64,000 bases of DNA from Octopus vulgaris (lineage: Eukaryota). The DNA lies in assembly GCA_951406725.2 (NCBI GenBank), contig OX597817.1, positions 24,552,001-24,616,000 of the forward strand, written 5' to 3'. The translations under genes and the position numbers were made by a program. Below, one piece after another: positions 12,031 to 58,375 of this stretch; the first letter of the stretch is position 1; the number at the start of each line of letters is the position of its first letter. The notes below the pieces were generated by a model. It saw only the letters and a program-made list of their open reading frames with translations, was not told where the DNA came from and did not search any database.

Positions 12031-12310
12031 GCAATGCTTTCTTCCTTTGTCAACACAATACATGCATATTGTGTTGATGAAGGAAGAAAGCATATGTTTT
12101 GCATTAATCCAGAAACTGGAATCAATTCACAATTAACATGAGATCTTTATAAGTACTTCAAGCATGCTGGAGACAGGTTGTTTTCACCCTGTCTCCCTTG
12201 ATATAATCATATACATATGTAAATTATTAATTTAATGTATTAATTAACTATAAATTTTTATAGCATACTGACTACTTGATAAAAATCATTAACATGATTT
12301 TTATCCTTAA

Positions 12311-12933
12311 GTGGCTGTGTGGTAAGTAGCTTGCTAACCAACCACATGGTTCCGGGTTCAGTCCCACTGCGTGGCATCTTGGGCAAGTGTCTTCTGCTAT
12401 AGCCCCGGGCCGGCCAATGCCTTGTGAGTGGATTTGGTAGACGGAAACTGAAAGAAGCCTGTCGTATATATATGTATGTATATATATATGTATGTGTGTG
12501 TGTATGTTTGTGTGTCTGTGTTTGTCCCCCTAGCATTGCTTGACAACCAATGCTGGTGTGTTTATATCCCCGTCACTTAGCGGTTCAGCAAAAGAGACCG
12601 ATAGAATAAGTACTGGATTTACAAAGAATAAGTCCTGGGGTCAAGTTGCTCGACTAAAGGCAGTGCTCCAGCATGGTTGCAGTCAAATGACTGAAACAAG
12701 TGAAAGAGCATATATATATGTGTCTGTGTTTGTACCCCTAGCATTGCTTGACAACCGATGCTGGTGTGTTTACGTCCCCGTCACTTAGCGGTTCGGCAAA
12801 AGAGACCGTTAGAATAAGTACTGGGCTTACAAAGAATAAGTCCCGGGGTCGATTTTCTCGACTAAAGGCGGTGCTCCAGCATGGCCGCAGTCAAATGACT
12901 GAAACAAGTAAAAGAGTAAAAGAGTAAAAGAGT
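12311..12933 (+). mobile_element. SINE family A with tandemly duplicated 3' half
   Basis: Copy 12311-12708 is followed directly by a second microsatellite-plus-3'-half (12709-12933) ending (GTAAAAGA)n. Confidence 0.9.
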
Positions 12934-13058: not shown

Positions 13059-13094
13059 GGTGCAGGTGTGGCTGTGTGATAAGAAGCTTGCTTC
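13059..13094 (+). mobile_element. 5' head of a split old SINE family A copy
   Basis: GGTGCAGGTGTGGCTGTGTGATAAGAAGCTTGCTTC; the rest of the SINE resumes at 15720. Confidence 0.85.
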
Positions 13095-13594
13095 TGGTTC
13101 CGGTCGTTAGTGTTCTTCACTGTACCCTTGAAGTCGTCACGCTGGTGTGCAGCTGGCGAAAATTGAATACCTAAGACGCTCTACCGTAAGGTAAGACTTT
13201 CTGCTTTTTGAGTCCAGTAGGATTTGTTACCTATAGGTCTTATTTTTTTTGTACAAGCAAGGAGTCCTTACTGGATTCGGAGCTTTTTGTCTGCCTTGCG
13301 GTGGAGACGTGTGCGTTCTCTCACATAATTGTGAGAAATTGTTTAATTCTCATTTGATTATTGTCCAGGAGTACTTTTTGGCCGAATATTAATTTCTTTA
13401 CTAGCATTTGAACTCTCTTTTCACAGCTATCATTTATTTTTTAAAAAAAGAACTTTAGTGAACTATTGTTTTTATTTTTTCTTCCCTTTTGTTGTGTCTT
13501 TCCTTCTTTTTCTGTGTATCTTTTTTTATTTGAAGCCGTATTGTGAACTGTATTTGAACTTTTTTAAAAAAAAGAATGGCAATGGAATTAGGAA

Positions 13595-14401
13595 TTGATA
13601 CCTTCCAAAACATGGATAAAGGAGCTCGAGGGGAGGACGGTGGTGTTGAGGACTTGTTCAGAGTCACTTGATGCCATAGCCATCTTCCTGAGGGTCACAA
13701 TTCTGAAGGAGCTGGCAGAGTACATGCCAGCCATTGAATTTATTTCACGGGGAGTCGGGATTGCAACGGTCTGGTTGCTGTTTGACTCCCCACAGGAAGC
13801 TTGCGATTTTGCGGGTCGGCCCCTGGAGGGCAAGGAAGTTATGTTTCTTCCCAGTTATTGTGGGAAGAAGCTGATGAGGGCTTGGGTCTGTGGTTTACCA
13901 CCTGGAATTGAGCCCGAGTGGATGGAGGATTCTATCCACTGGGGTCTGGGTGGTGGCAGTGCCGAGCTGCTTAACGTGAAAATTTTGCCTGCGGCTGATT
14001 GGGAGTGGTCAAAAGCTGTTTTGATCCGGTGGACCCAGTCGGCCCAGAGTCTGGTTTTTCCAGATTTTTTTAGGATGGCCGAGTCTAGGTATCCGGTGAT
14101 GCGCGAGGGACGCCCTTCCAAGTGTCATCTGTGCCTGGAGACCGGTCACATCGGGAAGAGCTGCCCCAGGGACCAAAATAGGATCCTGGAGCAGTTGATG
14201 GAGGAGTCGCTCCCTGCTCCTTCAATGGAGGGAGGGGGGAGGAGGGTGACGAGGAGGTTTCCACCTCCTCGAAAAAACGAAAGCGAAAGGTGCCCACCGA
14301 AGGACTCGAGGCTGCGGGAGAAAAGAAGGACACCAACCTCCCGCGGCCCAAGGGTAAAAGAAAAGAAAAAAGAAAAACGGGACATTGCCGGCGGGTTGTG
14401 A
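13595..14401 (+). CDS. gag/ORF1-like nucleic-acid-binding protein with CCHC zinc knuckle (L1/Tx1-type ORF1 architecture); probably frameshifted near its start
   Basis: 268-codon GC-rich ORF; CHLCLETGHIGKSC = CX2CX4HX4C at 14123-14164; basic tail; upstream ATGGCAATGG (13576) is one base out of frame. Confidence 0.7.
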   Translation: MIPSKTWIKELEGRTVVLRTCSESLDAIAIFLRVTILKELAEYMPAIEFISRGVGIATVWLLFDSPQEACDFAGRPLEGKEVMFLPSYCGKKLMRAWVCGLPPGIEPEWMEDSIHWGLGGGSAELLNVKILPAADWEWSKAVLIRWTQSAQSLVFPDFFRMAESRYPVMREGRPSKCHLCLETGHIGKSCPRDQNRILEQLMEESLPAPSMEGGGRRVTRRFPPPRKNESERCPPKDSRLREKRRTPTSRGPRVKEKKKEKRDIAGGL

Positions 14402-14810
14402 CACGCCGCCAGCGTCTCCCTATTCTTCTTCGGCGGGTGTGCCGCTGGAGGAGGAATTTGTAGTCCTCTTTCACAAGGGAGGAACTGTGCAGAATGAAAT
14501 TTAAAAAATTGAAAGGAAGGGCCAGTGGGAGGGGCTTCTGTCCTGCACGGGGGACCCTGAGTGGCCTTCGCAGGTGGCTGCGGAGGTCTTATGGGATAGT
14601 GATCTGTGCAGGATAACGAATTCCTTCCCAGCGGACTCCTATAGATATATGGCCAAGTGGTCTGGCTTGGAACCGAATAGATGCTTCAATGAAGCAAGGA
14701 GCCTGGTTGGACGAAAAACTTGAAGTATTGAACGTTTGGACTCAAAAAGAGTCTACAAAATGTAAAAAAAAGTGAAAGGATTATTGCCTCGTGGGTGTGT
14801 TTTTTCAATA

Positions 14811-14940
14811 TTGAACAATGTACGAGGTTTATAGCCTCATTGTGCTTCAAAAAGGAAAAAAAAAGAATTCTGAACTATATAAGAGGTTTATCGCCTCATT
14901 GTGTTTTTTATTAAAAAAAAGGAGGAAAAAAAGAACAATG
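14811..14940 (+). repeat. about 60-bp imperfect tandem duplication in the E1 3' region
   Basis: GAGGTTTAT(A/C)GCCTCATTGTG followed by an A-rich run occurs twice. Confidence 0.8.
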
Positions 14941-15100
14941 TTTTAGAGAAGCGAAAGTCGGCGGACGCTTTTCGTCTTCTCCCATCCTAATCATCCTTGC
15001 ATCATTATCATTCATCCCATTAATGTCTGTGTCCAGCCCGCAAGCTTCTCTCTGTGTGCTGCCCTTGTGGCAAATTAAATGAAATAAAGAACCTTGCTTC

Positions 15101-15705
15101 CGGTTGAACAGTGAGAAAAAAGAAGAAAAACAGAGAAGGTTGTCGAGGTAGGTGATTTTGTTTGTTGTGAGCTGGGCATAATTTATTGCGTGTGAATTAT
15201 TTTTTCAGTAAATTGTGCTCAGCTCTGGGACAATTCCGCCTGCTCTCGGCGGCTGCTGTTTTTGTACATCGAGAATTTATTGAATTCAGTTTTGGTGGGG
15301 CGTATCCTCGCCCGAATAGAACATGTTGCTGTTGCAGTTACCGTTGGCTGTAGCCAGCATTGTGTTTGAATTTGTGGATTAATTTACCAATTAACGGACA
15401 AAAAAAATGATTTATGCCAAGGACCCTATCCACATTAGGCCGGGATTACCTGTTGGCCGGGAGATTGGATTTTTGCCGTGTGAACTGTTTTTCTATTTTC
15501 CGTTTATCCTTCCTGATTTTCTCTTTCCTTTTGAACTATTAATTAATTTTTGGACTTACTTTGTTTTATTATTTTTTTTTATACCTTTTTTACATTCTCT
15601 TTGAACTTTGAACTTTTTTTAGAAATTTTAAGACTTTCTTTTTTTGCACATGGCAAAAACACAAGCTTCTCTGTATAAGGCCTATATGGCCAATTTAATG
15701 AAATA
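15101..15705 (+). mobile_element. element E2: non-coding relative of E1
   Basis: Bounded by target copies 15087-15100 and 15706-15719; shares TGAACT motifs, ATGGCA and the 3'-terminal 45 bp with E1. Confidence 0.7.
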
Positions 15706-15719
15706 AAGAAGTTTGCTTC

Positions 15720-16018
15720 TGAAAAACATGGTACCAGTTACAGTTTCATCACATGGCACCATGAGCAAGTGTTTTCTACTAAAGCCTTGAGCTGACCAAA
15801 GCCATGTGAGTGGTTTTAGTAGACAAAAACTCTGTGTGTGTGTGAGATTGTCTCTCTCTACTGCTTAACAATCAGGGTTAATTTGTTTACATCCTTTTTT
15901 ACCACTGGTTTGGCAAAAAGAGACAACAGAATATGTACCAGGCTTAAATAAGAAATTAGTATGGTGATTGATTTATTTTACTAAATATGGCCTGAGTCCA
16001 TTGAAACAAGTAAAAGAG
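15720..16018 (+). mobile_element. remainder of the split SINE family A copy
   Basis: ACATGGTACC...CATGGCACC...GCAAGTGTTTTCTAC...GACCAAAGCC...GAAACAAGTAAAAGAG, collinear with family A. Confidence 0.85.
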
Positions 16019-16465: not shown

Positions 16466-16628
16466 TTAAAGATAAGGTTAACATAGAAAAAAGAAAACAA
16501 AATATTTTTAAGACAAATTTTATAACATTAAAATATTAAATATCTAATATCCTAAACTGATATTATATTTAATCATTTCAATTCCTTATTTAATTTTTCT
16601 TTCTTCTATATCTTCATACTGAAAGATA

Positions 16629-19600
16629 TATATTGCCATACTGTTGTGACCATCAAATTGTTCTTTTTGAGTCTTTCCCATGTCTGCTTTATCCTCTAAA
16701 TTAATTTTTGAATACATATTGCCATATGCCATACTGTTGTGACCATCAAATTGTTCTTTTTGAGTCTTTCCCATGTCTGCTTTATCCTCTAAATTAATTT
16801 TTGAATACATATTGCCATACTGTTGTGACCATCAAATTGTTCTTTTTGAGTCTTTCCCATGTCTGCTTTATCCTCTAAATTAATTTTTGAATACATATTG
16901 CCATACTGTTGTGACCATCAAATTGTTCTTTTTGAGTCTTTACCATGTCTGCTTTATCCTCTAAATTAATTTTTGAATACATATTGCCATACAGTTGTGA
17001 CAATCAAATTCTTCTTTTGAGTATTTCCCATGTCTGCTTTATCCTCTAAATTAATTTTTGAATACATATTGCCATACTGTTGTGACCATCAAATTGTTCT
17101 TTTAGAGTCTTTCCCATGTCTGCTTTATCCTCTAAATTAATTTTTGAATACATATTGCCATACTGTTGTGACAATCAAATTCTTCTTTTTGAGTCTTTCC
17201 CATGTCTGCTTTATCCTCTAAATTAATTTTTGAATACATATTGCCATACTGTTGTGACCATCAAATTGTTCTTTTTGAGTCTTTCCCATGTCTGCTTTAT
17301 CCTCTAAATTAATTTTTGAATACATATTGCCATACTGTTGTGACCATCAAATTCTTCTTTTTGAGTCTTTCCCATGTCTGCTTTATCCTCTAAATTAATT
17401 TTTGAATACATATTGCCATACTGTTGTGACCATCATATTGTTCTTTTTGAGTCTTTCCCATGTCTGCTTTATCCTCTAAATTAATTTTTGAATACATATT
17501 GCCATACTGTTGTGACCAACAAATTGTTCTTTTTGAGTCTTTCCCATGTCTGCTTTATCCTCTAAATTAATTTTTGAATACATATTGCCATACAGTTGTG
17601 ACAATCAAATTGTTCTTTTTGAGTCTTTCCCATGTCTGCTTTATCCTCTAAATTAATTTTTGAATACATATTGCCATACAGTTGTGACAATCAAATTGTT
17701 CTTTTTGAGTCTTTCCCATGTCTGCTTTATCCTCTAAATTAATTTTTGAATACATATTGCCATACAGTTGTGACCATCAAATTGTTCTTTTTGAGTCTTT
17801 CCCATGTCTACTTTATCCTCTAAATCAATTTTTGAATACATATTGCCATACTGTTGTGACCATCAAATTCTTCTTTTTGAGTCTTTCCGATGTCTGCTTT
17901 ATCCTCTAAATTAATTTTTGAATACACATTGCCATACTGTTGTGACCATCAAATTGTTCTTTTTGAGTCTTTCCCATGTCTGCTTTATCCTCTAAATTAA
18001 TTTTTGAATACATATTGCCATACTGTTGTGACCATCAAATTGTTCTTTTTGAGTCTTTCCCATGTCTGCTTTATCCTCTAAATTAATTTTTGAATACGTA
18101 TTGCCATACAGTTGTGACAATCAAATTGTTCTTTTTGAGTCTTTCCCATGTCTGCTTTATCCTCTAAATTAATTTTTGAATACATATTGCCATACTGTTG
18201 TGTTGCCATACAGTTGTGACAATCAAATTCTTCTTTTTGAGTCTTTCCCATGTCTGCATTATCCTCTAAATTAATTTTTGAATACATATTGCCATACTGT
18301 TGTGACCATCAAATTGTTCTTTTTTAGTCTTTCCCATGTCTGCTTTATCCTCTAAATTAATTTTTGAATACATATTGCCATACAGTTGTGACAATCAAAT
18401 TGTTCTTTTTGAGTCTTTCCCATGTCTGCTTTATCCTCTAAATTAATTTTTGAATACATATTGCCATACAGTTGTGACAATCAAATTGTTCTTTTTCAGT
18501 CTTTCCCATGTCTGCATTATCCTCTAAATTAATTTTTGAATACATATTGCCAGACAGTTGTGACAATCAAATTGTTCTTTTTGAGTCTTTCCCATGTCTG
18601 CTTTATCCTCTAAATTAATTTTTGAATACATATTGCCATATAGTTGTGACAATCAAATTGTTCTTTTTGAGTCTTTCCCATGTCTGCTTTATCCTCTAAA
18701 TTAATTTTTGAATACATATTGCCATACAGTTGTGACAATCAAATTGTTCTTTTTGAGTCTTTCCGATGTCTGCTTTATCCTCTAAATTAATTTTTGAATA
18801 CATATTGCCATACAGTTGTGACCATCAAATTGTTCTTTTTAGTCTTTCCCATGTCTGCTTTATCCTCTAAATTAATTTTTGAATACATATTGCCATACAG
18901 TTGTGACAATCAAATTGTTCTTTTTGAGTTTTTCCCATGTCTGCTTTATCCTCTAAATTAATTTTTGAATACATATTGCCATACAGTTGTGACAATCAAA
19001 TTGTTCTTTTTGAGTCTTTCCCATGTCTGCTTTATCCTCTAAATTAATTTTTGAATACATATTGCCATACAGTTGTGACCATCAAATTGTTCTTTTTGAG
19101 TCTTTCCCATGTCTGCATTTATCCTCTAAATTAATTTTTGAATACATATTGCCATACTGTTGTGACAATCAAATTGTTCTTTTTGAGTCTTTCCCATGTC
19201 TGCTTTATCTTCTAAATTAATTTTTGAATACATATTGCCATACTGGTTGTGACAATCAAATTGTTCTTTTTCAGTCTTTCCCATGTCTGCTTTATCCTCT
19301 AAATTAATTTTTGAATACATATTGCCATTCTGTTTTGAACAATCAAATTGTTCTTTTTGAGTCTTTCCCATGTCTGCTTTATCCTCTAAATTAATTTTTG
19401 AATACATATTGCCATACAGTTGTGACAATCAAATTTTTCTTTTTGAGTCTTTCCCATGTCTGCTTTATCCTCTATATTAATTTTTGAATAAATATTGCCA
19501 TAAAGTTGTGACAATCAAATTGTTCTTTTTCAGTCTTTCCCATGTCTGCTTTATCCTGTAAATTAACTGTAAGTCCTTATTGTCATACTGTTTTGACTAT

Positions 19601-22600
19601 CATATTGTTCTTTTTCAGTCTTTCCCTTGTCTGCTTTATCCTATAAATTAACTGTAATACATATTGCCATACTGTTTTGACCATCATATTGTTCTTTTTC
19701 AGTCTTTCCCTTGTCTGCTTTATCCTGTAAATTAACTGTAAGTCCTTATTGCCATACTGTTTTGACCATCATATTGTTCTTTTTCAGTCTTTCCCTTGTC
19801 TGCTTTATCCGGTAAATTAACTGTAAGTCCTTATTGCCATACTGTTTTGACCATCATATTGTTCTTTTTCAGTCTTTCCCTTGTCTGCTTTATCCGTAAA
19901 TTAACTGTAAGTCCTTATTGCCATACTGTTTTGACCATCATATTGTTCTTTTTCAGTCTTTCCCTTGTCTGCTTTATCCGGTAAATTAACTGTAAGTCCT
20001 TATTGCCATACTGTTTGACCATCATATTGTTCTTTTTCAGTCTTCCTTGTCTGCTTTATCCGGTAAATTAACTGTGAGTCCTTATTGCCATACTGTTTTG
20101 ACCATCATATTGTTCTTTTTCAGTCTTTCCCTTGTCTGCTTTATCCGGTAAATTAATTGTAAGTAATTATTGCCATACTGTTTTGACCATCATATTGTTC
20201 TATTTCAGTCTTTCCCTTGACTGATTTATCCGGTAAATTAACTGTAAGTCCTTATTGCCATACTGTTTTGACCATCATATGGTTCTTTTTCAGTCTTTCC
20301 CTTGTCTGCTTTATCCGGTAAATTAATTGTAAGTCCTTATTGCCATACTGTTTTGACCATCATATTGTTCTTTTTCAGTCTTTCCCTTGTCTGCTTTATC
20401 CGGTAAATTAACTTGTAAGTACCTTATTGCCATACTGTTTTGACCATCATATTGTTCTTTTTCAGTCTTTCCCTTGTCTGCTTTATCCGGTAAATTAACT
20501 GTAAGTCCTTATTGCCATACTGTTTTGACCATCATATTGTTCTTTTTCAGTCTTTCCCTTGTCTGCTTTATCCGGTAAATTAATTGTAAGTCCTTATTGC
20601 CATACTGTTTTGACCATCATATTGTACTTTTTCAGTCTTTCCCTTGTCTGCTCTATCCGGTAAATTAATTGTAAGTACTTATTGCCATACTGTTTTACCA
20701 TCATATTGTACTTTTTCAGTCTTTCCCTTGTCTGCTTTATCCGGTAAATTAACTGTAAGTCCTTATTGCCATACTGTTTTGACCATCATATTGTACTTTT
20801 TCAGTCTTTCCCTTGTCTGCTTTATCCGGTAAATTAATTGTAAGTACTTATTGCCATACTGTTTTGACCATCATATTGTACTTTTTCAGTCTTTCCCTTG
20901 TCTGCTTTATCCGGTAAATTAATTGTAAGTCCTTATTGCCATACTGTTTTGACCATCATATTGTTCTTTTTCAGTCTTTCCCTTGTCTGCTTTATCCGGT
21001 AAATTAACTGTAAGTCCTTATTGCCATACTGTTTTGACCATCATATTGTTCTTTTTCAGTCTTTCCCTTGTCTGCTTTATCCGGTAAATTAACTGTAAGT
21101 CCTTATTGCCATACTGTTTTGACCATCATATTGTTCTTTTTCAGTCTTTCCCTTGTCTGCTTTATCCGGTAAATTAATTGTAAGTACTTATTGCCATACT
21201 GTTTTGACCATCATATTGTTCTTTTTCAGTCTTTCCCTTGTCTGCTTTATCCGGTAAATTAACTGTAAGTCCTTATTGCCATACTGTTTTGACCATCATA
21301 TTGTTCTTTTTCAGTCTTTCCCTTGTCTGCTCTATCCGGTAAATTAATTGTAAGTCCTTATTGCCATACTGTTTTGACCATCATATTGTACTTTTTCAGT
21401 CTTTCCCTTGTCTGCTTTATCCGGTAAATTAATTGTAAGTACTTATTGCCATACTGTTTTGACCATCATATTGTACTTTTTCAGTCTTTCCCTTGTCTGC
21501 TTTATCCGGTAAATTAATTGTAAGTACTTATTGCCATACTGTTTTGACCATCATATTGTACTTTTTCAGTCTTTCCCTTGTCTGCTTTATCCGGTAAATT
21601 AACTGTAAGTACTTATTGCCATACTGTTTTGACCATCATATTGTACTTTTTCAGTCTTTCCCTTGTCTGCTTTATCCGGTAAATTAATTGTAAGTACTTA
21701 TTGCCATACTGTTTTGACCATCATATTGTTCTTTTTCAGTCTTTCCCTTGTCTGCTTTATCCGGTAAATTAATTGTAAGTACTTATTGCCATACTGTTTT
21801 GACCATCATATTGTACTTTTTCAGTCTTTCCCTTGTCTGCTTTATCCGGTAAATTAATTGTAAGTCCTTATTGCCATACTGTTTTGACCATCATATTGTT
21901 CTTTTTCAGTCTTTCCCTTGTCTGCTTTATGCGGTAAATTAATTGTAAGTACTTATTGCCATACTGTTTTGACCATCATATTGTACTTTTACAGTCTTTC
22001 CCTTGTCTGCTTTATGCGATAAATTAATTGTAAGTACTTATTGCCATACTGTTTTGACCAACATATTGTACTTTTTCAGTCTTTCCCTTGTCTGCTTTAT
22101 CCGGTAAATTAATTGTAAGTACTTATTGCCATACGGTTTTACCATCATATTGTACTTTTTCAGTCTTTCCCTTGTCTGCTTTATCCTGTAAATTAACTGT
22201 AAGTACTTATTGCCATACTGTTTTGACCATCATATTGTTCTTTTTCAGTCTTTCCCTTGTCTGCTTTATCCGGTAAATTAACTGTAAGTACTTATTGCCA
22301 TACTGTTTTACCATCATATTGTACTTTTTCAGTCTTTCCCTTGTCTGCTTTATCCGGTAAATTAATTGTAAGTACTTATTGCCATACTGTTTTGACCATC
22401 ATATTGTTCTTTTTCAGTCTTTCCCTTGTCTGCTTTATCCGGTAAATTAACTGTAAGTCCTTATTGCCATACTGTTTTGACCATCATATTGTTCTTTTTC
22501 AGTCTTTCCCTTGTCTGCTTTATCCTGTAAATTAACTGTAAGTCCTTATTGCCATACTGTTTTGACCATCATATTGTTCTTTTTCAGTCTTTCCCTTGTC

Positions 22601-25600
22601 TGCTTTATCCTGTAAATTAACTGTAAGTCCTTATTGCCATACTGTTTTGACCATCATATTGTTCTTTTTCAGTCTTTCCCTTGTCTGCTTTATCCTGTAA
22701 ATTAACTGTAAGTCCTTATTGCCATACTGTTTTGACCATCATATTGTTCTTTTTCAGTCTTTCCCTTGTCTGCTTTATCCGGTAAATTAATTGTAAGTCC
22801 TTATTGCCATACTGTTTTGACCATCAGTTGTTCTTTTCAGTCTTTCCCTTGTCTGCTTTATCCTGTAAATTAACTGTAAGTCCTTATTGCCATACTGTTT
22901 TGACCATCATATTGTAATTTTTCAGTCTTTCCCTTGTCTGCTTTATCCGGTAAATTAATTGTAAGTCCTTATTGCTATACTGTTTTGACCATCATATTGT
23001 TCTTTTTCAGTCTTTCCCTTGTCTGCTTTATCCGGTAAATTAATTGTAAGTCCTTATTGCTATACTGTTTTGTCCATCAAATTGTTCTTTTTCAGTCTTT
23101 CCCATGTCTGCTTTATCCGGTAAATTAACTGTAAGTACTTGTTGCCATACTGTTTTGACCATCATATTGTAATTTTTCAGTCTTTCCCTTGTCTGCTTTA
23201 TCCGGTAAATTAATTGTAAGTCCTTATTGCCATACTGTTTTTACCATCATATTGAACTTTTTCAGTCTTTCCCTTGTCTGCTTTATCCGGTAAATTAATT
23301 GTAAGTACTTATTGCCATACTGTTTTGACCATCATATTGTTCTTTTTCAGTCTTTCCCTTGTCTGCTTTATCCAGTAAATTAATTGTAAGTCCTTATTGC
23401 CATACTGTTTTGACCATCATATTGTTCTTTTTCAGTCTTTCCCTTGTCTGCTTTATCCTGTAAATTAACTGTAAGTCCTTATTGCCATACTGTTTTGACC
23501 ATCATATTGTTCTTTTTCAGTCTTTCCCTTGTCTGCTTTATCCGGTAAATTAACTGTAAGTCCTTATTGCCATACTGTTTTGACCATCATATTGTTCTTT
23601 TTCAGTCTTTCCCTTGTCTGCTTTATCCTGTAAATTAACTGTAAGTCCTTATTGCCATACTGTTTTGACCATCATATTGTTCTTTTTCAGTCTTTCCCTT
23701 GTCTGCTTTATCCGGTAAATTAACTGTAAGTCCTTATTGCCATACTGTTTTGACCATCAAATTGTTCTTTTTCAGTCTTTCCCTTGTCTGCTTTATCCGG
23801 TAAATTAACTGTAAGTACTTATTGCCATACTGTTTTGACCATCATATTGTTCTTTTTCAGTCTTTCCCTTGTCTGCTTTATCCGGTAAATTAACTGTAAG
23901 TCCTTATTGCCATACTGTTTTGACCATCATATTGTTCTTTTTCAGTCTTTCCCTTGTCTGCTTTATCCGGTAAATTAACTGTAAGTCCTTATTGCCATAC
24001 TGTTTTGACCATCATATTGTTCTTTTTCAGTCTTTCCCTTGTCTGCTTAATCCGGTAAATTAACTGTAAGTCCTTATTGCTATACTGTTTTGTCCATCAA
24101 ATTGTTCTTTTTCAGTCTTTCCCTTGTCTGCTTTATCCTGTAAATTAACTGTAAGTCCTTATTGCCATACTGTTTTGACCATCATATTGTTCTTTTCAGT
24201 CTTTCCCTTGTCTGCTTTATCCGGTAAATTAACTGTAAGTCCTTATTGCCATACTGTTTTGACCATCATATTGTTCTTTTTCAGTCTTTCCCTTGTCTGC
24301 TTTATCCGGTAAATTAACTGTAAGTCCTTATTGCCATACTGTTTTGACCATCATATTGTTCTTTTTCAGTCTTTCCCTTGTCTGCTTTATCCGGTAAGTT
24401 AACTGTAAGTCCTTATTGCCATACTGTTTTGACCATCATATTGTACTTTTTCAGTCTTTCCCTTGTCTGCTTTATCCGGTAAATTAACTGTAAGTCCTTA
24501 TTGCCATACTGTTTTGACCATCATATTGTACTTTTTCAGTCTTTCTTTTGTCTGCTTTATCCGGTAAATTAATTGTAAGTACTTATTGCCATACTGTTTT
24601 GACCATCATATTGTTCTTTTTCAGTCTTTCCCTTGTCTGCTTTATCCGTAAATTAACTGTAAGTACTTATTGCCATACTGTTTTGACCATCATATTGTTC
24701 TTTTTCAGTCTTTCCCTTGTCTGCTTTATCCGGTAAATTAACTGTAAGTCCTTATTGCCATACTGTTTTGACCATCATATTGTTCTTTTTCAGTCTTTCC
24801 CTTGTCTGCTTTATCCGGTAAATTAATTGTAAGTCCTTATTGCCATACTGTTTTGACCATCATATTGTTCTTTTTCAGTCTTTCCCTTGTCTGCTTTATC
24901 CGGTAAATTAACTGTAAGTCCTTATTGCCATACTGTTTTGACCATCATATTGTTCTTTTTCAGTCTTTCCCTTGTCTGCTTTATCCGGTAAATTAACTGT
25001 AAGTCCTTATTGCCATACTGTTTTGACCATCATATTGTTCTTTTTCAGTCTTTCCCTTGTCTGCTTTATCCGGTAAATTAACTGTAAGTCCTTATTGCCA
25101 TACTGTTTTGACCATCATATTGTTCTTTTTCAGTCTTTCCCTTGTCTGCTTTATCCGGTAAATTAATTGTAAGTACTTATTGCCATACTGTTTTGACCAT
25201 CATATTGTTCTTTTTCAGTCTTTCCTTGTCTGCTTTATCCGGTAAATTAATTGTAAGTACTTATTGCCATACTGTTTTGACCATCATATTGTTCTTTTTC
25301 AGTCTTTCCCTTGTCTGCTTTATCCTATAAATTAACTGTAAGTACTTATTGCCATACTGTTTTGACCATCATATTGTTCTTTTTCAGTCTTTCCCATGTC
25401 TGCTTTATCCGGTAAATTAACTGTAAGTCCTTATTGCCATACTGTTTTGACCATCATATTGTTCTTTTTCAGTCTTTCCCTTGTCTGCTTTATCCGGTAA
25501 ATTAACTGTAAGTCCTTATTGCCATACTGTTTTGACCATCATATTGTTCTTTTTCAGTCTTTCCCTTGTCTGCTTTATCCGGTAAATTAACTGTAAGTCC

Positions 25601-28600
25601 TTATTGCCATACTGTTTTGACCATCATATTGTACTTTTTCAGTCTTTCCCTTGTCTGCTTAATCCGGTAAATTAACTGTAAGTCCTTATTGCCATACTGT
25701 TTTGACCATCATATTGTTCTTTTTCAGTCTTTCCCATGTCTGCTTTATCCTATAAATTAACTGTAAGTACTTATAGCCATACAGTTTTGACCATCATATT
25801 GTTCTTTTTCAGTCTTTCCTTTGTCTGCTTTATCCGGTAAATTAACTGTAAGTCCTTATTGCCATACTGTTTTGACCATCATATTGTTCTTTTTCAGTCT
25901 TTCCCTTGTCTGCTTTATCCTGTAAATTAACTGTAAGTCCTTATTGCCATACTGTTTTGACCATCATATTGTTCTTTTTCAGTCTTTCCCTTGTCTGCTT
26001 TATCCTGTAAATTAATTGTAAGTACTTATTGCCATACTGTTTTGACCATCATATTGTTCTTTTTCAGTCTTTCCCTTGTCTGCTTTATCCGGTAAATTAA
26101 CTGTAAGTACTTATTGCCATACTGTTTTGACCATCATATTGTTCTTTTTCAGTCTTTCCCTTGTCTGCTTTATCCGGTAAATTAACTGTAAGTACTTATT
26201 GCCATACTGTTTTGACCATCATATTGTTCTTTTTCAGTCTTTCCCTTGTCTGCTTTATCCGGTAAATTAACTGTAAGTACTTATTGCCATATTGTTTTGA
26301 CCATCATATTGTTCTTTTTCAGTCTTTCCCTTGTCTGCTTTATCCGGTAAATTAACTGTAAGTCCTTATTGCCATACTGTTTTGACCATCATATTGTTCT
26401 TTTTCAGTCTTTCCCTTGTCTGCTTTATCCGGTAAATTAACTGTAAGTACTTATTGCCATACTGTTTTGACCATCATATTGTTCTTTTTCAGTCTTTCCC
26501 TTGTCTGCTTTATCCGGTAAATTAACTGTAAGTCCTTATTGCCATACTGTTTTGACCATCATATTGTTCTTTTTCAGTCTTTCCCTTGTCTGCTTTATCC
26601 GGTAAATTAACTGTAAGTCCTTATTGCCATACTGTTTTGACCATCATATTGTTCTTTTTCAGTCTTTCCCTTGTCTGCTTTATCCGGTAAATTAACTGTA
26701 AGTCCTTATTGCCATACTGTTTTGACCATCATATTGTACTTTTTCAGTCTTCCACTTGTCTGCTTTATCCTGTAAATTAACTGTAAGTACTTATTGCCAT
26801 ACTGTTTTGACCATCATATTGTTCTTTTTCAGTCTTTCCCTTGTCTGCTTTATCCGGTAAATTAACTGTAAGTCCTTATTGCCATACTGTTTTGACCATC
26901 ATATTGTTCTTTTTCAGTCTTTCCCTTGTCTGCTTTATCCGGTAAATTAACTGTAAGTCCTTATTGCCATACTGTTTTGACCATCATATTGTTCTTTTTC
27001 AGTCTTTCCCTTGTCTGCTTTATCCTGTAAATTAACTGTAAGTCCTCATTGCCATACTGTTTTGACCATCATATTGTTCTTTTTCAGTCTTTCCCTTGTC
27101 TGCTTTATCCTGTAAATTAACTGTAAGTCCTTATTGCCATACTGTTTTGACCATCATATTGTTCTTTTTCAGTCTTCACTTGTCTGCTTTATCCTGTAAA
27201 TTAACTGTAAGTCCTTATTGCCATACTGTTTTGACCATCATATTGTTCTTTTTCAGTCTTCACTTGTCTGCTTTATCCTATAAATTCACTGTAAGTCCTT
27301 ATTGCCATACGGTTTTGACCATCATATTGTTCTTTTTCAGTCTTCACTTTTCTGCTTTATGCGGTAAATTAACTGTAAGTATTTATTGCCATACGGTTTT
27401 GACCATCATATTGTTCTTTTTCAGTCTTTCCCTTGTCTGCTTTATCCGGTAAATTAAATGTAAGTCCTTATTGCCATATTGTTTTGACCATCATATTGTT
27501 CTTTTTCAGTCTTTCCCTTGTCTGCTTTATCCTGTAAATTAACTGTAAGTCCTTATTGCCATACTGTTTTGACCATCATATTGTTCTTTTTCAGTCTTTC
27601 CCTTGTCTGCTTTATCCGTAAATTAACTGTAAGTCCTTATTGCCATACTGTTTTGACCATCATATTGTTCTTTTTCAGTCTTTCCTTGTCTGCTTTATCC
27701 GGTAAATTAATTGTAAGTACTTATTGCCATACTGTTTTGACCATCATATTGTTCTTTTTCAGTCTTTCCCTTGTCTGCTTTATCCGGTAAATTAATTGTA
27801 AGTACTTATTGCCATACTGTTTTGACCATCATATTGTTCTTTTTCAGTCTTTCCCTTGTCTGCTTTATCCGGTAAATTAACTGTAAGTCCTTATTGCCAT
27901 ACTGTTTGACCATCATATTGTTCTTTTCAGTCTTCACTTGTCTGCTATTGATTTTGCCTTATTGCCATACTGTTTTGACCATCATATTGTTCTTTTTCAG
28001 TCTTCCTTGTCTGCTTTATCTTAAATTATGTAAGTCCTTATTGCCATACGTTTGCCATCATATTGTTCTTTTCGCTTCTTCTGCTTTATCGTAAATTAAC
28101 TGTAAGTTTATTGCCATACTGTTTTGACCATCATATTGTTCTTTTTCAGTCTTTCCTTGTCTGCTTTATCGTAAATTAACTGTAAGTCCTTATTGCCATA
28201 CTGTTTTGACCATCATATTGTTCTTTTTCAGTCTTTCCCTTGTCTGCTTTATCCGGTAAATTAACTGTAAGTCCTTATTGCCATACTGTTTTGACCATCA
28301 TATTGTACTTTTTCAGTCTTTCCCTTGTCTGCTTTATCCGTAAATTAATTGTAAGTACTTATTGCCATACTGTTTTGACCATCATATTGTTCTTTTTCAG
28401 TCTTCACTTGTCTGCTTTATCCGGTAAATTAATTGTAAGTCCTTATTGCCATACTGTTTTGACCATCATATTGTTCTTTTTCAGTCTTCACTTGTCTGCT
28501 TTATCCTGTCAATTAGCTCTAAGTCCTTATTGCCATACTGTTTTGACCATCATATTGTACTTTTTCAGTCTTCCTTTTGTCTGCTTTTTCCGGTAAATTA

Positions 28601-30862
28601 ATTGTAAGTACTTATTGCCATACTGTTTTGACCATCATATTGTTCTTTTTCAGTCTTCACTTGTCTGCATAATCCTGTAAATTCCCTGTAAGTCCTTATT
28701 GCCATACTGTTTTGACCATCATATTTTTCTTTTTCAGTCTTTCCCTTGTCTGCTTTATCCTGTAAATTAACTGTAAGTACTTAATGCAATATTGTTTTGA
28801 CCATCGTATCGTTCTTTTTCAGTCTTTCCCTTGGCTGCTTTATCCTGTAAATTAAATGTAAATCCTTATTGCGATATTGTTTTGAGCATCATATTGTTCT
28901 TTTTCAGTCTTTCCCTTGTCTGCTTTATCCGGTAAATTAACTGTAAGTCCTTATTGCCATACTGTTTTGACCATCATATTGTTCTTTTTCAGTCATTCAC
29001 TTGTAAGCTTTATCCAGTAAATTAACTGTAAGTCCTTATTGCCATACTGTTTGGCCATCATATTGTACTTTTTCAGTCTTTCTTTTGTCTGCTTTTTCCG
29101 GTAAATTAACTGTAAGTCCTTATTGCCATACTGTTTTGACCATATTGTTTTTTTCAGTCTTCACTTGTTTGCATTATCCTGTAAATTCACTTTAAGTCCT
29201 TATTGCCATACTGTTTTGACCATCATATTGTTCTTTTTCAGTCTTCCTTGTCTGCATTATCCTGTAAATTCACTGGAAGTCCTTATTGCCATACTGTTTT
29301 TACCATCATATTTTCTTTTTCAGTCTTCACTTGTCTGCTTTATCCTGTAAATTAACTGTAAGTCCTTATTGCCATACTGTATGACCATCTTATTGTTCTT
29401 TTTCAGTCTTCACTTGTCTGCATTATCCTGTAAATTCACTGTAAGTCCTTATTGCCATACTGTTTTTACCATCATATTGTTCTTTTTCAGTCTTCTCTTG
29501 TCTGCATAATCCTGTAACTTAATTGTAAGTCCTTATTGCCATACTGTTTTGACCATCATATTGTTCTTTTTCAGTCTTTCCCTTGTCTGCTTTATGCGGT
29601 AAATTAACTGTAAGTCCTTATTGCCATACTGTTTTGACCATCATATTGTTCTTTTTCAGTCATTCCCTTGTCTGCTTTTTCCGGTAAAGTAACTGTGAGT
29701 CCTTATTGCCATACTGTTTTGACCATCATATACTACTTTTTCATTCTTTCCCTTGTCTGCTTTATCCGGTAAATTAACTGTAGGTCCTTATTGCCATACT
29801 GTTTTGACCATCATATTGTTCTTTTTCAGTCTTTCCCTTGTCTGCTTTATCCAGTAAATTAACTGTAAGTCCTTATTGCCATACGGTTTTGACCATCATA
29901 TTGTTCTTTTTCAGTCTTCACTTGTCTGCATTATCCTGTAAATTCACTTTAAGTCCTTATTGCCATACTGTATGACCTTCTTATTGTTCTTTTTCAGTCT
30001 TCACTTGTCTGCATTATCCTGTAAATTCACTGTAAGTCCTTATTGCCATACTGTTTTGACCATCTTATTGTTCTTTTTCAGTCTTCACTTGTCTGCTTTA
30101 TCCTGTAAATTAACTGTAAGTCCTTATTGCCATACTGTTTTGACCATCATATTGTTCTTTTTCAATCTTCACTTGTCTGCATTATCCTGTAAATTCACTG
30201 GAAGTCCTTATTGCCATACTGTTTTTACCATCATATTTTTCTTTTTCAGTCTTCACTTGTCTGCATAATCCTGTAAATTCACTGTAAGTCCTTATTGCCA
30301 TACTGTTTTGACCATCATATTGTTCTTTTTCAGTCTTCACTTGTCTGCATTATCCTGTAAATTCACTGTAAGTCCTTATTGCCATACTGTTTTTACCATC
30401 ATATTGTTCTTTTTCAGTCTTCACTTGTCTGCATAATCCTGTAAATTCACTGTAAGTCTTTATTGCCATACTGTTTTGACCATCATATTGTTGTTTTTTA
30501 TTCTTCACTTGTCTGCTTTATCCTGTAAATTAACTGTAAGTCCTTATTGCCCTACTGTATGACCATCTTATTGTTCTTTTTCAGTCTTCACTTGTCTGCA
30601 TTATCCTGTAAATTCCCTGTAAGTCCTTATTGCCATACTGTTTTTACCATCATATTGTTCTTTTTCAGTCTTCACTTGTCTGCATAATCCTGTAAATTCA
30701 ATGTAAGTCCTTATTGCCTTCCTTTTTTTACCATCATATTGTTCTTTTTCAGTCTTTTCCTTGTCTGCTTTTTCCTGTAAATTAACTGTAAGTCCTTATT
30801 ACCATACTGTTTTGGCCATCATATTGTTCTTTTTCAGTCTTTCCCATGTCTGCTTTATCCTC
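16629..30862. repeat. tandem satellite, about 167 units of 84-86 bp
   Basis: Unit TTGCCATACTGTT(G/T)TGACCATCA(A/T)ATTGTTCTTTTT(G/C)AGTCTTTCCC(A/T)TGTCTGCTTTATCC...; period counted as 86 (17241 to 17327), 85 (20941 to 21026) and 84 distally; copy number is length/85. Confidence 0.98.
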
Positions 30863-36460: not shown

Positions 36461-37385
36461 ATGGGGTGGTGATATATATATATATATATATATATTATTC
36501 TTTCCATATATATATATATTTATATTATGGCTGCCCCCTCATTATCGAGTATGGCCATTGCATGAAGCTTAACTGTTACTGGTGCTGTGATCGAATGTGA
36601 CATTTTAGCCCAGCTAAAGATCTACAGTGTCTTGTACAGAATTGGCAACTAAATTGCCTCAGTAAAGCTGGACCCAAGAGTCATCTCCGTAGTCATAAAG
36701 TGAGACAGATGAGTAACACACCATACTAATCATATCTGTCGGGCATGTGGAAGAGAGTGTAATTTGGCAGGAGGACTTAAACGACATGCAAAGGTACATG
36801 AAGCCGAGTTACAACTACAGCCGGCTATTACCGGTAAAGGTTTTAGTTGCCGATTCTGTACAAGACACTGTAGATCTTTAGCTGGGTTAAAAAGTCACAT
36901 TCGATCTCAGCACCAGTAATAGCCGGCTGTAGTTGTAACTTGGCTTCATGTCGTTTAAGTCCTCCTGCCAAATTACACTCTTTTCCACATGCCCAACAAA
37001 TATGATTAGTATGGTGTGTTACACCACCACCAGTGGCCAGGCTGTCACTCATCTGTCTCGCTTTATGACTACGAAGATGACTCTTGGGTCCAGCTTTACT
37101 GAGGCAGGGTCTTGCACAGACATTGCATGTCAGAATCAAAGAAAGACCCTTCCCATCTGGAAGTGTAACAGCGATGCCCTTCCTGACATCCCCCCTTACT
37201 TTCTCATGTGCAACTCAAGATTTCTCAAAAGTAGCTGTCACCTCGTGCACAATCCTTCTCCACCTGCTACGATCAATAGCTATGCCTTCCCATGTGTCAG
37301 GAGAGATGCAAGCATCTCTTAAGGAAGCCTTCAGCAAGACCTTATACCTCTTTTTTGGTTTATGTAGAGGTCGTTCTCCTTTAGC

Positions 37386-38546
37386 TCACTCTCCATAAAA
37401 GAGTTGTTTTGGCATCCTTGAATCCTTCATCCTGACCAAATGACCACTCCATCTGAGCCTTTGCTTTAACACAAGAGCTTCTATACTTTCACACCGAGAG
37501 ACTTCCAATATTTCAAGATCACTGATGCGGTCCTTCCACTTAATGCCATCGATTCGTCTGAGGCACATCTGATGGAAACGTTCCAGTTGTTTAAGGTGGT
37601 ATCGATATGTGACCCACGTCTCGCAGGCATAGAGAAGAGAAGGGAGCACACATGCCTTGTACATCTTCATCTTTGTCTTTCTGCATATGTCTTGCCGACT
37701 CCAGAGGTGCTTTTCTAGCCTTCCGAAAGCAACACTTGCTTTCCTAATTCTATATGGAATTTCATCATCCAAATTGCTATATCTATTAATAGTGCTTCCC
37801 AGGTGGACAAACTGATCAACTAGATCAAGTCGTTTACCATAAACATAGATATTTGGTACGCTATATTGCTTACCAGGGGCAGGTTGATGCATGACAACAG
37901 TTTTCTTGATATTGACTGTCAATCCTAAGGCAGTGCAAGCATCAGAGAATGCATTCAGAATGTGTTGCATATCAATCTCTGTGTGTGCTACTAGCTCACA
38001 ATCATCTGCATACAAAAGGTCTCTTATGATAGAGGTAAATACCTTTGTTTTTGCAGCAAGGCGCCTGATATTAAATATGCTGCCAGAGTTTCGATAATGG
38101 ATGTAAACACCGTATCTGCAGTTTCTGAATGCAATAGAGAACACCATCGCAAAATATATAGAAAATAGGGTCAGTGCCAGAATATTCCCCTGTTTCACTC
38201 CATTGTGTATTGAAATGGGCTCTGAAATTTTCCCTCTAACATTCACCCTACCATTCATGTCTTCATGGAAAGATCTAACCAAAGCAAGGAACTTTTCAGG
38301 ACACCCAAGTTTCTGGAGGACTTTCCACAATGCTTTTCTAGTGACGGTATCAAAGGCTTTTGTTAGATCGACAAAAACCTGATACAAATCCAGACCCTGT
38401 TCCACACACTTCTCCTGAAGCTGTCTAGCTGAAAAGATCATATCAGCAGTGCCACGTCCCACACGAAAGCCAGATTGACTTTCTGGAAGAACACAATCTG
38501 CAATGTATTTCAGCAGACGATCCAGAAGTATCTTGCATAAAACCAT
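37386..38546 (-). pseudogene. reverse transcriptase domain of the RTE LINE
   Basis: 386-codon ORF with QSGFR, DLTKAFD, GVKQG and YADD; flanked by a frameshift and a stop. Confidence 0.92.
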
Positions 38547-39706
38547 CCTACGGCAGACATCAATGATACTCCCCTATAATTACCACAATTATTCCTGTTG
38601 CCCTTTCCCTTATACAGGACCACCATTACTGCATCTCTCTAGTCCTCAGGGACAGATTCTCTAGTCCATATCTTACCAAACAAAGAGTGAAGTTTCTGCA
38701 GAAGTTTCTCAACACCATGTTGTAACAACTCCACATGTATGCCATCCATACCCGAAGACTTCCCATTATTCAACCTTGAGATAGTCATTGCAACTTCTTC
38801 CAACTTTGGTGGTTCTGCGAGTGCTGCCTTCACAGGTAATTCAGGGATGAGATAGAGAACATCCTCACTAACTAGACTGCTGATTCAAAAGTTCATTAAA
38901 GTGTTCTTGCCACCTTCGCAGAATTCCTTGTGAATCACGAAGAAGTTCTTTACAATCCCTGCTTCGAAGTGGTGTCATCAGGGAAGATGTCGGTCCATAA
39001 ACTTCTCGCAAGAGACCATACAACAGCTTTGTGTTATTAGAATCTGATGCCACCTGTATCTCATCAGCCTTCTTACTCCACCACGTATCCCTCATCTGAG
39101 AGAGCCTTTGCCTCACACGTGATTTTACGTCCTTGAGTTCCCTATGCAACACTTCTCTTTCCCGTGGCTTTGCTGACAAATAGCATGACAAAGTACATCT
39201 TTTATCAGCCAATAAATCATCTATATGTTCATCATTTTCTTTAAACCAATCTTGATGCTTTCTTTGTATCAATCCCAGAACTTTATTGCCTATATCATAA
39301 ACTGACATTTTAAGGGTCGGCCAATCCTCCCCAATATCGGCAGCATTCATTTCCTCTCGTAAAGTTCTCTTCATACTATTACACATTTGACGATCAACAT
39401 TCAGTCATTTAGGCAGGGTAATCCCTGCAGCTCGGATTTTATGTTTTGTGACTAATTTCATTTTTGCACGTACTAGGCGGTGGTCAGTCCCACACTCAGC
39501 TCCACGAAGAACACGAACACACTGCACATCTTTCTGTCTCGCACCTTAACAAGGATGTAATCCAGAATATGCCATTCTTTAGATGCAGGGTGCATCCATG
39601 TAGTCTTAAACTTATTCTTTTGTTGAAACATGGTATTGGTAACACTCATACATCTGCAGCCAAAGCATGCCATTACTATTACAATTCCCCACCCCATGCT
39701 TTCCAA

Positions 39707-40326
39707 TTACAGTCCATGTGTTAAAATCCCTCTAGCATTAAAGTCACCCAGTACGATGACTTTGTCTGCCCAAGGGATATTTCTTATAATGCCCTTCAAA
39801 GCATGGTAGAAAGAAAGTCTTTCGTCATCAGTATAGCACATAGTTGGAGCATACACACTCACAAAGGTCACATAATTTCTTTTAACCAAAGGAATTCTCA
39901 TGGACATAAGACGCTTGTTAATTCCGATTGGGAATTCTTCCAACTTGTCCACAAGAGTAATCTTAACAGCAAATGCCACTCCAGCTGCTCCTCTAAACTC
40001 TTCATTCCTCCTTTTCCAAAAGAACGTATATTTTCCACAAGATTCTGTAAGATGACCATCTCCAGGTAATCTCGTCTCAGATAAAGCAACGATGTCAAGA
40101 TCATAGCGTTGAAGCTCCTTCGCAATAAGCACAGTCCTTCTTTCAGGACATTCAGGGGACTTGCAGTCAAGCAGTGTCCGTACATTCCAACAGCCAATAT
40201 TCAATATTTTCTTTGGTTCTATCACAGTAGCATGATGACGGCCAGGTTCAGACTGTGATGCTCTGGATCCCCTGCCGGGCCAGACTCTTTCAGCTGATGC
40301 GGTTCCAGAGTCCTTACTGCCATTTA
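39707..40326 (-). pseudogene. APE-type endonuclease domain of the RTE LINE
   Basis: WNVRTL, ALSETR, YAPT and GDFNA motifs; the frame stays open upstream to about 40326. Confidence 0.9.
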
Positions 40327-40337
40327 TTTTTTTTATT

Positions 40338-40845
40338 ATGTCAGGTCACTTTCGAGTGCTACTGGTAACATGTAACCCAGTACAACCTGTTGCATGGTCG
40401 GGTCGTCAGTGACTAAACCGGCAACCCCACCAAGCTTGCTTGGTGAGGAAGGTGTTTATTGGACACCCTGCGGGATGAAAAACAAAACCCATCAAAGGGC
40501 GGAGGGACTCTTGAGAGTCAACGGCCATCCAATAAAAGTCTTAAGGCTGTATCATGTGCGGGGACATAGAAATAATCGGACTGAATACTCAATCGCACAG
40601 TTAAACCATTGGGAGTGAAGGACTCCTAGTCTTTGTTAGGGCATCCTTCAAGGAGAAGGTAACTCAGGTAACTGGGATAACTCCAACATAAAACCTGCGG
40701 CTCATTGGTTACCGATGATGTTGAATTGTTCTTCTTTTCGGATTATGGCTGGTGTTGCTTAGTGAGTGGGATTGACTCAGTGCACAGCCTTTCCTCACTT
40801 AAAAAAGGAATCTTCTTGCACAGACATAGCACGATAACAACATTA
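40338..40845 (+). mobile_element. RTE 5'-UTR-like segment, head-to-head with the LINE
   Basis: GC-richer block containing AGGGCATCCTTCAAGGAGAAGGTAACTC...AAAACC, resembling RTE leader motifs as I recall them. Confidence 0.4.
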
Positions 40846-57553: not shown

Positions 57554-57916
57554 GGATTCGCAATATATACATTCTTCTTTCAGGGTGAATCAGCAGCCTA
57601 GGAGCTCGTCGCAGTAGTCAAGTGGAGTGAGCCAAATCCTGTCCGTTCAAGCATAGCATAGCAATGCTTCAAGACTGATAGAATAAGTACTAAACTCAGT
57701 TATAAGATCTCTTCATCTCATAGTAATTTATGGCTATGTACTGCAGCTACACAAGTATACTAATTGGTTGATTAAAACATTCGAAGTATGAAGATAACTT
57801 TTTTTTTACCAGCAGTTAAAATTAAAATTTCTCACCTCATTTATAAATCATTCACACCCTTGTTTTACTATATCCTATAGAATCATCTAGATACATATCA
57901 CATATATAGAAACATA

Positions 57917-58101
57917 TACTACTACTACTACTACCACCACCACCACCACCACTACTACTACTACCACCACCACCAGCATCACCACTACTACCACCACCAC
58001 CCACCACCACCACCACCATCACTACTACTACCACCACCACCAGCATCACCACTACTACCACCACCACCACCACCACCACCACCACTACTACTACCACCAC
58101 C

Positions 58102-58132
<31 letters not shown>

Positions 58133-58164
58133 CCACCACCACCACCACCACTACTACTACTACC

Positions 58165-58199
<35 letters not shown>

Positions 58200-58257
58200 C
58201 ACTACCACCACCACCACTACTACTACTACCACCGCCACCACTGCCACTGCTGCTGCA
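57917..58257. repeat. compound (ACC)n/(ACT)n trinucleotide repeat
   Basis: Direct reading; explains the poly-V and poly-G/S ORFs. Confidence 0.95.
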
Positions 58258-58375
58258 TTGTCTGTAGATGAGCGCTATCAACCACTTATCTCTTCAATTT
58301 ATCTTTCCTGCATTGCTATTGGTAAATTGCTCTTCAGTAGACCTGAGTCTTCACTTAGTCAAAGATAAATATATT

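Follow-up and report, generated by a model that had tools for sequence, protein, structure and literature searches.

Why should two retroelements nested in one SINE of Octopus vulgaris each carry, shortly before the 3' end, a motif that is the reverse complement of the site into which it is inserted, and does that motif choose the site or follow it? The locus that raises the question lies in a 64-kb window (the whole stretch of DNA analysed, 64,000 nucleotides) and reads in the order SINE head, target copy, E1, target copy, E2, target copy, SINE remainder. Both elements are non-autonomous LINE derivatives that encode ORF1 alone; they sit one behind the other in the SINE head, flanked by target duplications of about 15 bp. 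The host SINE we take to be tRNA-derived and of octopus type; ARAGORN and Rfam, run on it, returned no tRNA or Rfam match. The features, all on the + strand, are these:

13059..13080, +: 5' head of the A-type SINE that the insertions split; matches other SINE heads in the window
13081..13095, +: target copy 1, the 5' target-site duplication, AAGAAGCTTGCTTC
13096..15086, +: E1, a HAL1-like, ORF1-only non-autonomous LINE derivative of about 2.0 kb, of an A-type family
13576..14595, +: ORF1 of E1, with a frameshift near 14233-14320
14123-14164, +: CCHC zinc knuckle in E1 ORF1
15040..15049, +: anti-target motif of E1, GCAAGCTTCT, complementary to target positions 2-11 (evidence: covariation)
15060..15072, +: terminal hairpin of E1, TGCC-loop-GGCA, a predicted RT recognition element
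15083..15088, +: AATAAA across the E1/target junction, with no poly(A) tail after it; a putative poly(A) signal (evidence: sequence)
15087..15101, +: second target copy, separating E1 from E2, AAGAACCTTGCTTCC, with a single change
15102..15705, +: E2, a member of a sister ORF1-only family that has lost an internal segment, the deletion being joined at 15661/15662
15662..15670, +: anti-target motif of E2, CAAGCTTCT
15679..15691, +: terminal hairpin of E2, GGCC-loop-GGCC, a compensatory variant of the E1 hairpin
15706..15720, +: third target copy, AAGAAGTTTGCTTCT, with a single change
15721..15831, +: degenerate rest of the interrupted SINE, which matches the SINE at 12296-12720 at 74.5%

Elsewhere the window holds a large tandem satellite (16600-30500; more than 110 copies of a unit of about 70 nt shifting to 85 nt), a broken LINE on the minus strand (36843-40345; endonuclease at 39707-40345 and RT pieces at 37386-38573, Pfam RVT_1 and Exo_endo_phos) that is presumably RTE-like, and a long trinucleotide microsatellite tract of CAC/TAC type (57850-58370).

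The sequences on which the original prediction was built are in place: the target AGAAGCTTGC occupies 13082-13091, its reverse complement GCAAGCTTCT appears without mismatch at 15040-15049, and the E2 motif stands at 15662-15670, with no other occurrence of the target or of either motif in the 64-kb window. The predicted spacing of about 45 nt likewise holds, the motif starting 47 nt (E1) and 44 nt (E2) before the element ends at 15086 and 15705. It had also been claimed that the similarity of E1 and E2 begins exactly at the motif, but full-length sisters match E1 for at least about 30 nt further upstream; the apparent start arises because the internal deletion of E2 ends at the motif. E2 matches the full-length element L034 at 90% on either side of this gap of about 1.25 kb, and the deletion fuses the start of ORF1 (15650-15661) to the motif. 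The single mismatch of E2 is indeed a G-U pair, and the target copy downstream of E1 (AAGAACC, 15087-15093) sets a C-C mismatch against the E1 motif; given that the 5' target copy is intact, both mismatches are probably later point changes.

The genome (2.8 Gb, 227 contigs) was searched with the 3' end of E1 (1515 candidate matches, 40 scored) and with its ORF (9902 candidate matches, 150 scored). Among 20 loci fetched around ORF matches, full-length sisters of E1 measure 2.0-2.3 kb and hold a single CCHC-knuckle ORF between target duplications; the intact E1-ORF relative L131 matched zf-CCHC weakly (E 0.008, below the cutoff). E1 and E2 are HAL1-like in that full-length copies carry ORF1 only and share a hairpin-AAATA end with an autonomous family. 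This autonomous partner, found via the tandem array L139, is 5.45 kb long with ORF1 and an APE-RT ORF2; in L151-L153, also 5.45 kb, ORF1 bears a CCHC knuckle and ORF2 has 1133 aa. Partner ORF2 contains Exo_endo_phos and RVT_1 domains, many of its copies are 98-99% identical with open frames, and the family, judged from these sequences, is intact and very young. The closest solved structure to ORF2 is human LINE-1 ORF2p (E 3.8e-67, versus 8e-20 for R2), and the partner has the L1-group layout of two ORFs, with an N-terminal APE, RT and a C-terminal zinc finger in ORF2. The ORF1 of the ORF1-only elements is only about 24-26% identical to that of the partner. 5'-truncated copies occur (L064, L097, L104, L112), and target-site duplications together with 5' truncations mark the autonomous partner group as TPRT-type. 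Its sequence-specific insertion into a repeat is a mark of the Tx1 clade, although the homolog search for a clade assignment returned nine unnamed proteins with no named Tx1 reference among them. As a separate observation, head-to-tail arrays bring together ORF1-only and autonomous elements of different families within a single SINE, with one target copy between units (L136, L139; G000:C1:223692297-223706814); among the matches listed they reach up to 7 units at 2-kb spacing.

All element ends share one form: hairpin, AAATA, then directly AAG(A/T)AGCTTGCTT, without poly(A). The site has two variants, A (AAGAAGC) and T (AAGTAGC), and more than 1,000 exact junctions were found in total, 717 of the T and 318 of the A variant, as against 0 for a reversed-pattern control. 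A family specialised on C or G targets was considered and rejected; only 22 such junctions exist, and these are point variants, as their motifs follow the SINE background. Among 79 elements with both junctions, the target copies are of the same variant in 74, the other 5 being internal look-alike sites or C/G point variants, and private host changes are common to both copies; the duplication is therefore host DNA. Across 56 tails the terminal hairpin is paired in 93.5% of cells, with two-sided changes in 3 of 5 pairs.

Several irregular ends deserve mention. In L086 (1300-1580; G000:C1:111115384-111118403) a 5'-truncated insertion begins with an inverted copy of its own 3' end and of the target; this product of fold-back creates an antisense target copy upstream of the tail. 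Five further elements (L039, L043, L146, L147, L262) have a hairpin-AAATA-target-like end duplicated internally, some 240 nt before the true 3' end. The 5' junctions of L131-L150 and L246-L249 carry family-heritable letters such as CGCTAAC, TTCTCAC and TTCC on T hosts, which suggests that the RNA 5' end may carry target-like sequence used for 5' joining.

Two target variants allow the relation between motif and site to be followed, and the covariation that the original prediction called for holds genome-wide (AAGAAGC versus AAGTAGC) and in independent lineages. By exact patterns across the genome, motif and target match in 161 of 165 autonomous-type junctions (the T-motif lies on T in 140 and on A in 3, the A-motif on A in 21 and on T in 1), and 450 of 489 ORF1-only junctions are concordant, the remainder being 28 T-motifs on A and 11 A-motifs on T. 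When loci were picked by the junction only, 30 for each variant, T targets had a T-fitting motif in 17/30 and an A-fitting one in 0/30, A targets an A-fitting motif in 16/30 and a T-fitting one in 1/30, and 26 loci had neither 6-mer. Duplex energies over 215 junctions agree: the cognate target is the better partner for 131 of 138 ORF1-only tails (3 worse, 4 ties) and 19 of 21 autonomous tails, compared with 9 of 22 unclassified and 3 of 33 motif-less tails; an earlier pass had dropped 7 of 171 junctions as false or rearranged. Likewise, the best duplex that the segment from -110 to -22 forms with its cognate target is stronger than shuffles allow (p<=0.05) for 86% of 105 distinct ORF1-only tails, for 77% of 13 autonomous tails and for 0 of 29 motif-less tails. 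The caveat that the motif is largely the palindrome AAGCTT no longer applies, since the T-type motif AGCTAC is non-palindromic and occurs in antisense only.

Trees point the same way with fewer events. The ORF1 tree (89 rows, 71 with both traits) has 5 target and 5 motif changes, with 4/4 starred independent pairs concordant; the tail tree, from which the motif was cut out, has 7 target and 6 motif changes, with 3 pairs agreeing, 0 opposing and 1 uninformative; the ORF2 tree, rooted on relatives, has 4 of each, 2/2 concordant pairs and A as the ancestral state. Pooled over the ORF1 and ORF2 trees, 6/6 starred pairs are concordant, a sign-test p=0.031 that is overstated because the A-type rows of the ORF2 tree were chosen by the concordant pattern and the mismatched family described below is absent from the ORF1 tree; each test alone falls below significance. 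Further, only one target base varies, and the covariation therefore rests on one position. The target complement nevertheless stands at two distances (45 and about 80 nt) in unrelated flanks and is kept through indels. In these SINE-targeting L1/Tx1-like retrotransposons, the 3' UTR carries the motif as a conserved copy, in antisense, of the insertion site, and the motif follows the target variant.

Relatives with 60-65% ORF2 identity use other insertion sites and lack the motif, which consequently does not stay constant where the target differs; constancy there is what the original prediction had named as fatal to it. L193-L201 and L318-L324, at this distance, end in AAATAAAGAAA and are followed by fixed sequences of TCCTTTCGG type and TACGCCCGC type; they probably represent further site-specific families with different targets. 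A general pairing between motif and downstream flank was not found at 28 loci of such relatives (own flank -6.3, swapped -5.6 kcal/mol). One candidate, a GGGCGCGTTT motif before a ACGCCCGC site in two copies (-12.5), was set aside, its shuffle quantiles being 0.04-0.09 and five other elements at the site showing none.

Conserved as it is, the motif does not itself choose the site. A motif-less non-autonomous family inserts at the same base (39 exact junctions, 20 A and 19 T), with 7 target-variant changes among 33 copies and, in the one fold made, a local hairpin where the motif would be; since this family is precisely targeted, a helix formed by the motif is dispensable. Conversely, in one family whose motif is T-type, 28 of 31 copies lie on A targets, and those on T, 3 in number, form a slightly different sub-type; the variant therefore comes down from the site that the donor itself occupied and is not read from the motif. 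This mismatched family is young (median pairwise distance 2.7% over 110 nt, 8 copies) and has expanded to at least 28 copies; one mismatch is therefore no bar to expansion. A guide that is necessary and dictates the target, as in a bridge-RNA-like system, is not what these two families display. Motif-bearing families are, however, more faithful to their variant overall: the nearest neighbour is on the other variant in 3 of 115 motif-bearing copies versus 8 of 32 of the motif-less family (p=0.0002).

What the motif may do instead is, in the reading that we prefer and hold with about even confidence, to pair with the read-through target copy on the element's own RNA and so close a helix around the terminal hairpin. 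Standard 3' processing at AATAAA leaves sequence beyond the signal on the RNA. As the junction completes AATAAA, such processing would leave target sequence, some 15-25 nt, on the element RNA, and the invariant, tail-less junctions of AAATA with AAG are consistent with read-through-primed TPRT of the R1Bm/R2 type. The predicted probability of tail-motif pairing is 0.75 with the cognate and 0.49 with the swapped target in 116 ORF1-only tails and 0.92 versus 0.63 in 14 autonomous tails, compared with 0.20 versus 0.21 in 29 motif-less tails. Read-through tail and endonuclease would set site and variant, with the tail pairing to the bottom strand at the nick, in the manner of R1Bm and R2. The helix between motif and tail would enclose the hairpin and be opened by the nicked bottom strand, the motif keeping the tail in register until displaced by the primer strand; once free of the tail, it might catch the released top strand. 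Given that one mismatch is tolerated, a lineage can switch target before its helix is repaired, the motif tracking the switch with a lag. An earlier model of a read-through helix thus keeps its soft form, the pairing of motif and read-through copy, and loses the clause that only matched copies make a competent RNA, which the expansion of the mismatched family contradicts.

The RNA tail and the top DNA strand are identical in sequence, so that pairing with one is inseparable by sequence from pairing with the other, and wobble-type motif variants point both ways between sense and complementary strands. It is accordingly conceivable, if rather unlikely, that the main partner of the motif is the top DNA strand displaced in TPRT while the tail pairs with the bottom strand, a two-strand RNA-DNA recognition that recalls bridge RNAs, the motif proof-reading or stabilising without finding the site. 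The covariation data fit this equally, as do the rarity of other-variant neighbours among motif-bearing copies (3/115 versus 8/32) and the presence of young A-type elements (median neighbour distance 3.7%) in A-type SINEs that are old (median divergence 13%), even though T-type SINEs were there as well; among 57 uninterrupted SINE heads in the loci fetched here, intact T sites number 27 and A sites 3. Against it stand the T-motif family on A targets (28/31), the 11 A-motif copies on T targets and the upstream flank: extension of the pairing into GGT gains more than the 3' flank in 69 of 79 contexts yet does no better than permuted letters (-2.6 vs -2.8; -3.7 vs -6.2 kcal/mol), and was rejected. 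In its widest version, offered only tentatively, the LINE RNA would engage both target strands, the tail on the nicked bottom strand and the antisense motif capturing the top strand by strand exchange; if true, an APE-type retrotransposon of a eukaryote, co-evolved with its SINE target, would possess a step of RNA-DNA recognition that is both natural and re-programmable. Pairing with the top strand after site choice is also what is left of the earlier proposal that element RNA binds the top strand or SINE RNA and helps to select the site, the selecting role being contradicted by the motif-less and T-motif-on-A families.

More doubtful is that the motif has no function, its covariation reflecting shared descent and timing (A old, T young) or template switching that homogenises a quasi-palindrome. 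A-type SINEs are indeed older (12.7% versus 5.7% divergence for T-type), the tail tree yields just 3 concordant starred pairs, the inverted junction of L086 demonstrates that antisense target copies can arise by fold-back, and motif-less and mismatched families thrive. Yet switches recur in autonomous and ORF1-only lineages with 6/6 starred pairs concordant, A and T families overlap in age, the motif core survives indels in two unrelated flank contexts, and the inverted 3' end expected from fold-back is not seen after the motif. Least probable of all is that the motif pairs with target sequence at the 5' end of the RNA, transcribed from a start in the SINE head, or that the motif cDNA pairs with the primer strand, in aid of circularisation or second-strand synthesis. 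The family-heritable, target-like letters at positions of about 9-15 of 5' junctions fit such a role, and the variants ACAAG, GCCAC and GCAAC are wobbles only on complementary strands; but GTAGC, TAAGC and GCTGC are wobbles only in sense pairing, and the 3' tail lies 45-80 nt from the motif whereas the 5' end is 2-5.5 kb away.

The nearest relatives in habit are Tx1-clade LINEs, which, according to the accessible part of one study, insert into other transposons (Tx1L into Tx1D, crocodilian Tx1-Mar into Mariner-N4_AMi). Like the octopus system they comprise an L1-group APE-RT LINE whose site in another repeat is fixed, they insert in tandem, and they have non-autonomous partners with the same target (PMC4494074). 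The octopus target differs in being a SINE head, and the likeness derives from insertion habit, not RT phylogeny. That same part of the study ascribes target choice to the endonuclease and mentions no complementary motif ('complementary' occurs 0 times; PMC4494074). HAL1 (half-L1), as the available text presents it, is similarly a non-autonomous L1-group derivative with ORF1 only, but the octopus elements are site-specific, non-mammalian, of many families and without a poly(A) tail (PMC5753468). In R1Bm, SART1Bm and R2Bm, the accessible sections report, pairing of RNA and target leads to an accurate start of reverse transcription; that RNA is target-sense and pairs with the bottom strand, whereas the octopus motif is antisense, internal and covarying (PMC7265360, PMC10499050). 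Conserved LINE 3' stem-loops have been described as well, in a source available in part (PMC3747384). A 2026 octopus repeat annotation recognises 13 recently active L1-Tx1 families, its main text, in the portion available, giving neither target sites nor nesting (PMC13282606). A literature search, with Repbase and most subscription papers outside its scope, turned up neither a description of the present SINE-targeting system nor an antisense motif whose sequence covaries with the target of a LINE. Target-specific Tx1-like LINEs are thus already known, and the covarying anti-target motif is the new part within the literature searched.

In the usual view, APE-type LINEs choose targets mainly through the endonuclease, and target-sense RNA homology just sharpens priming. 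An antisense motif that tracks a one-base target change in several lineages points to an extra RNA pairing step. The genome supplies its own controls: a young autonomous family, non-autonomous families whose motif matches the target, mismatches it or is missing, and a target in two variants. What RNA-target pairing contributes to TPRT can thus be tested directly, which is relevant to retargeting LINEs for gene insertion. In the bridge RNA or seekRNA of IS110/IS1111 elements, the element RNA is complementary to the target and changes with it. The octopus element RNA likewise carries a target complement that changes with the target; unlike those systems, the LINE works through an endonuclease and RT, not a recombinase, and it can do without its motif, which does not determine the site.
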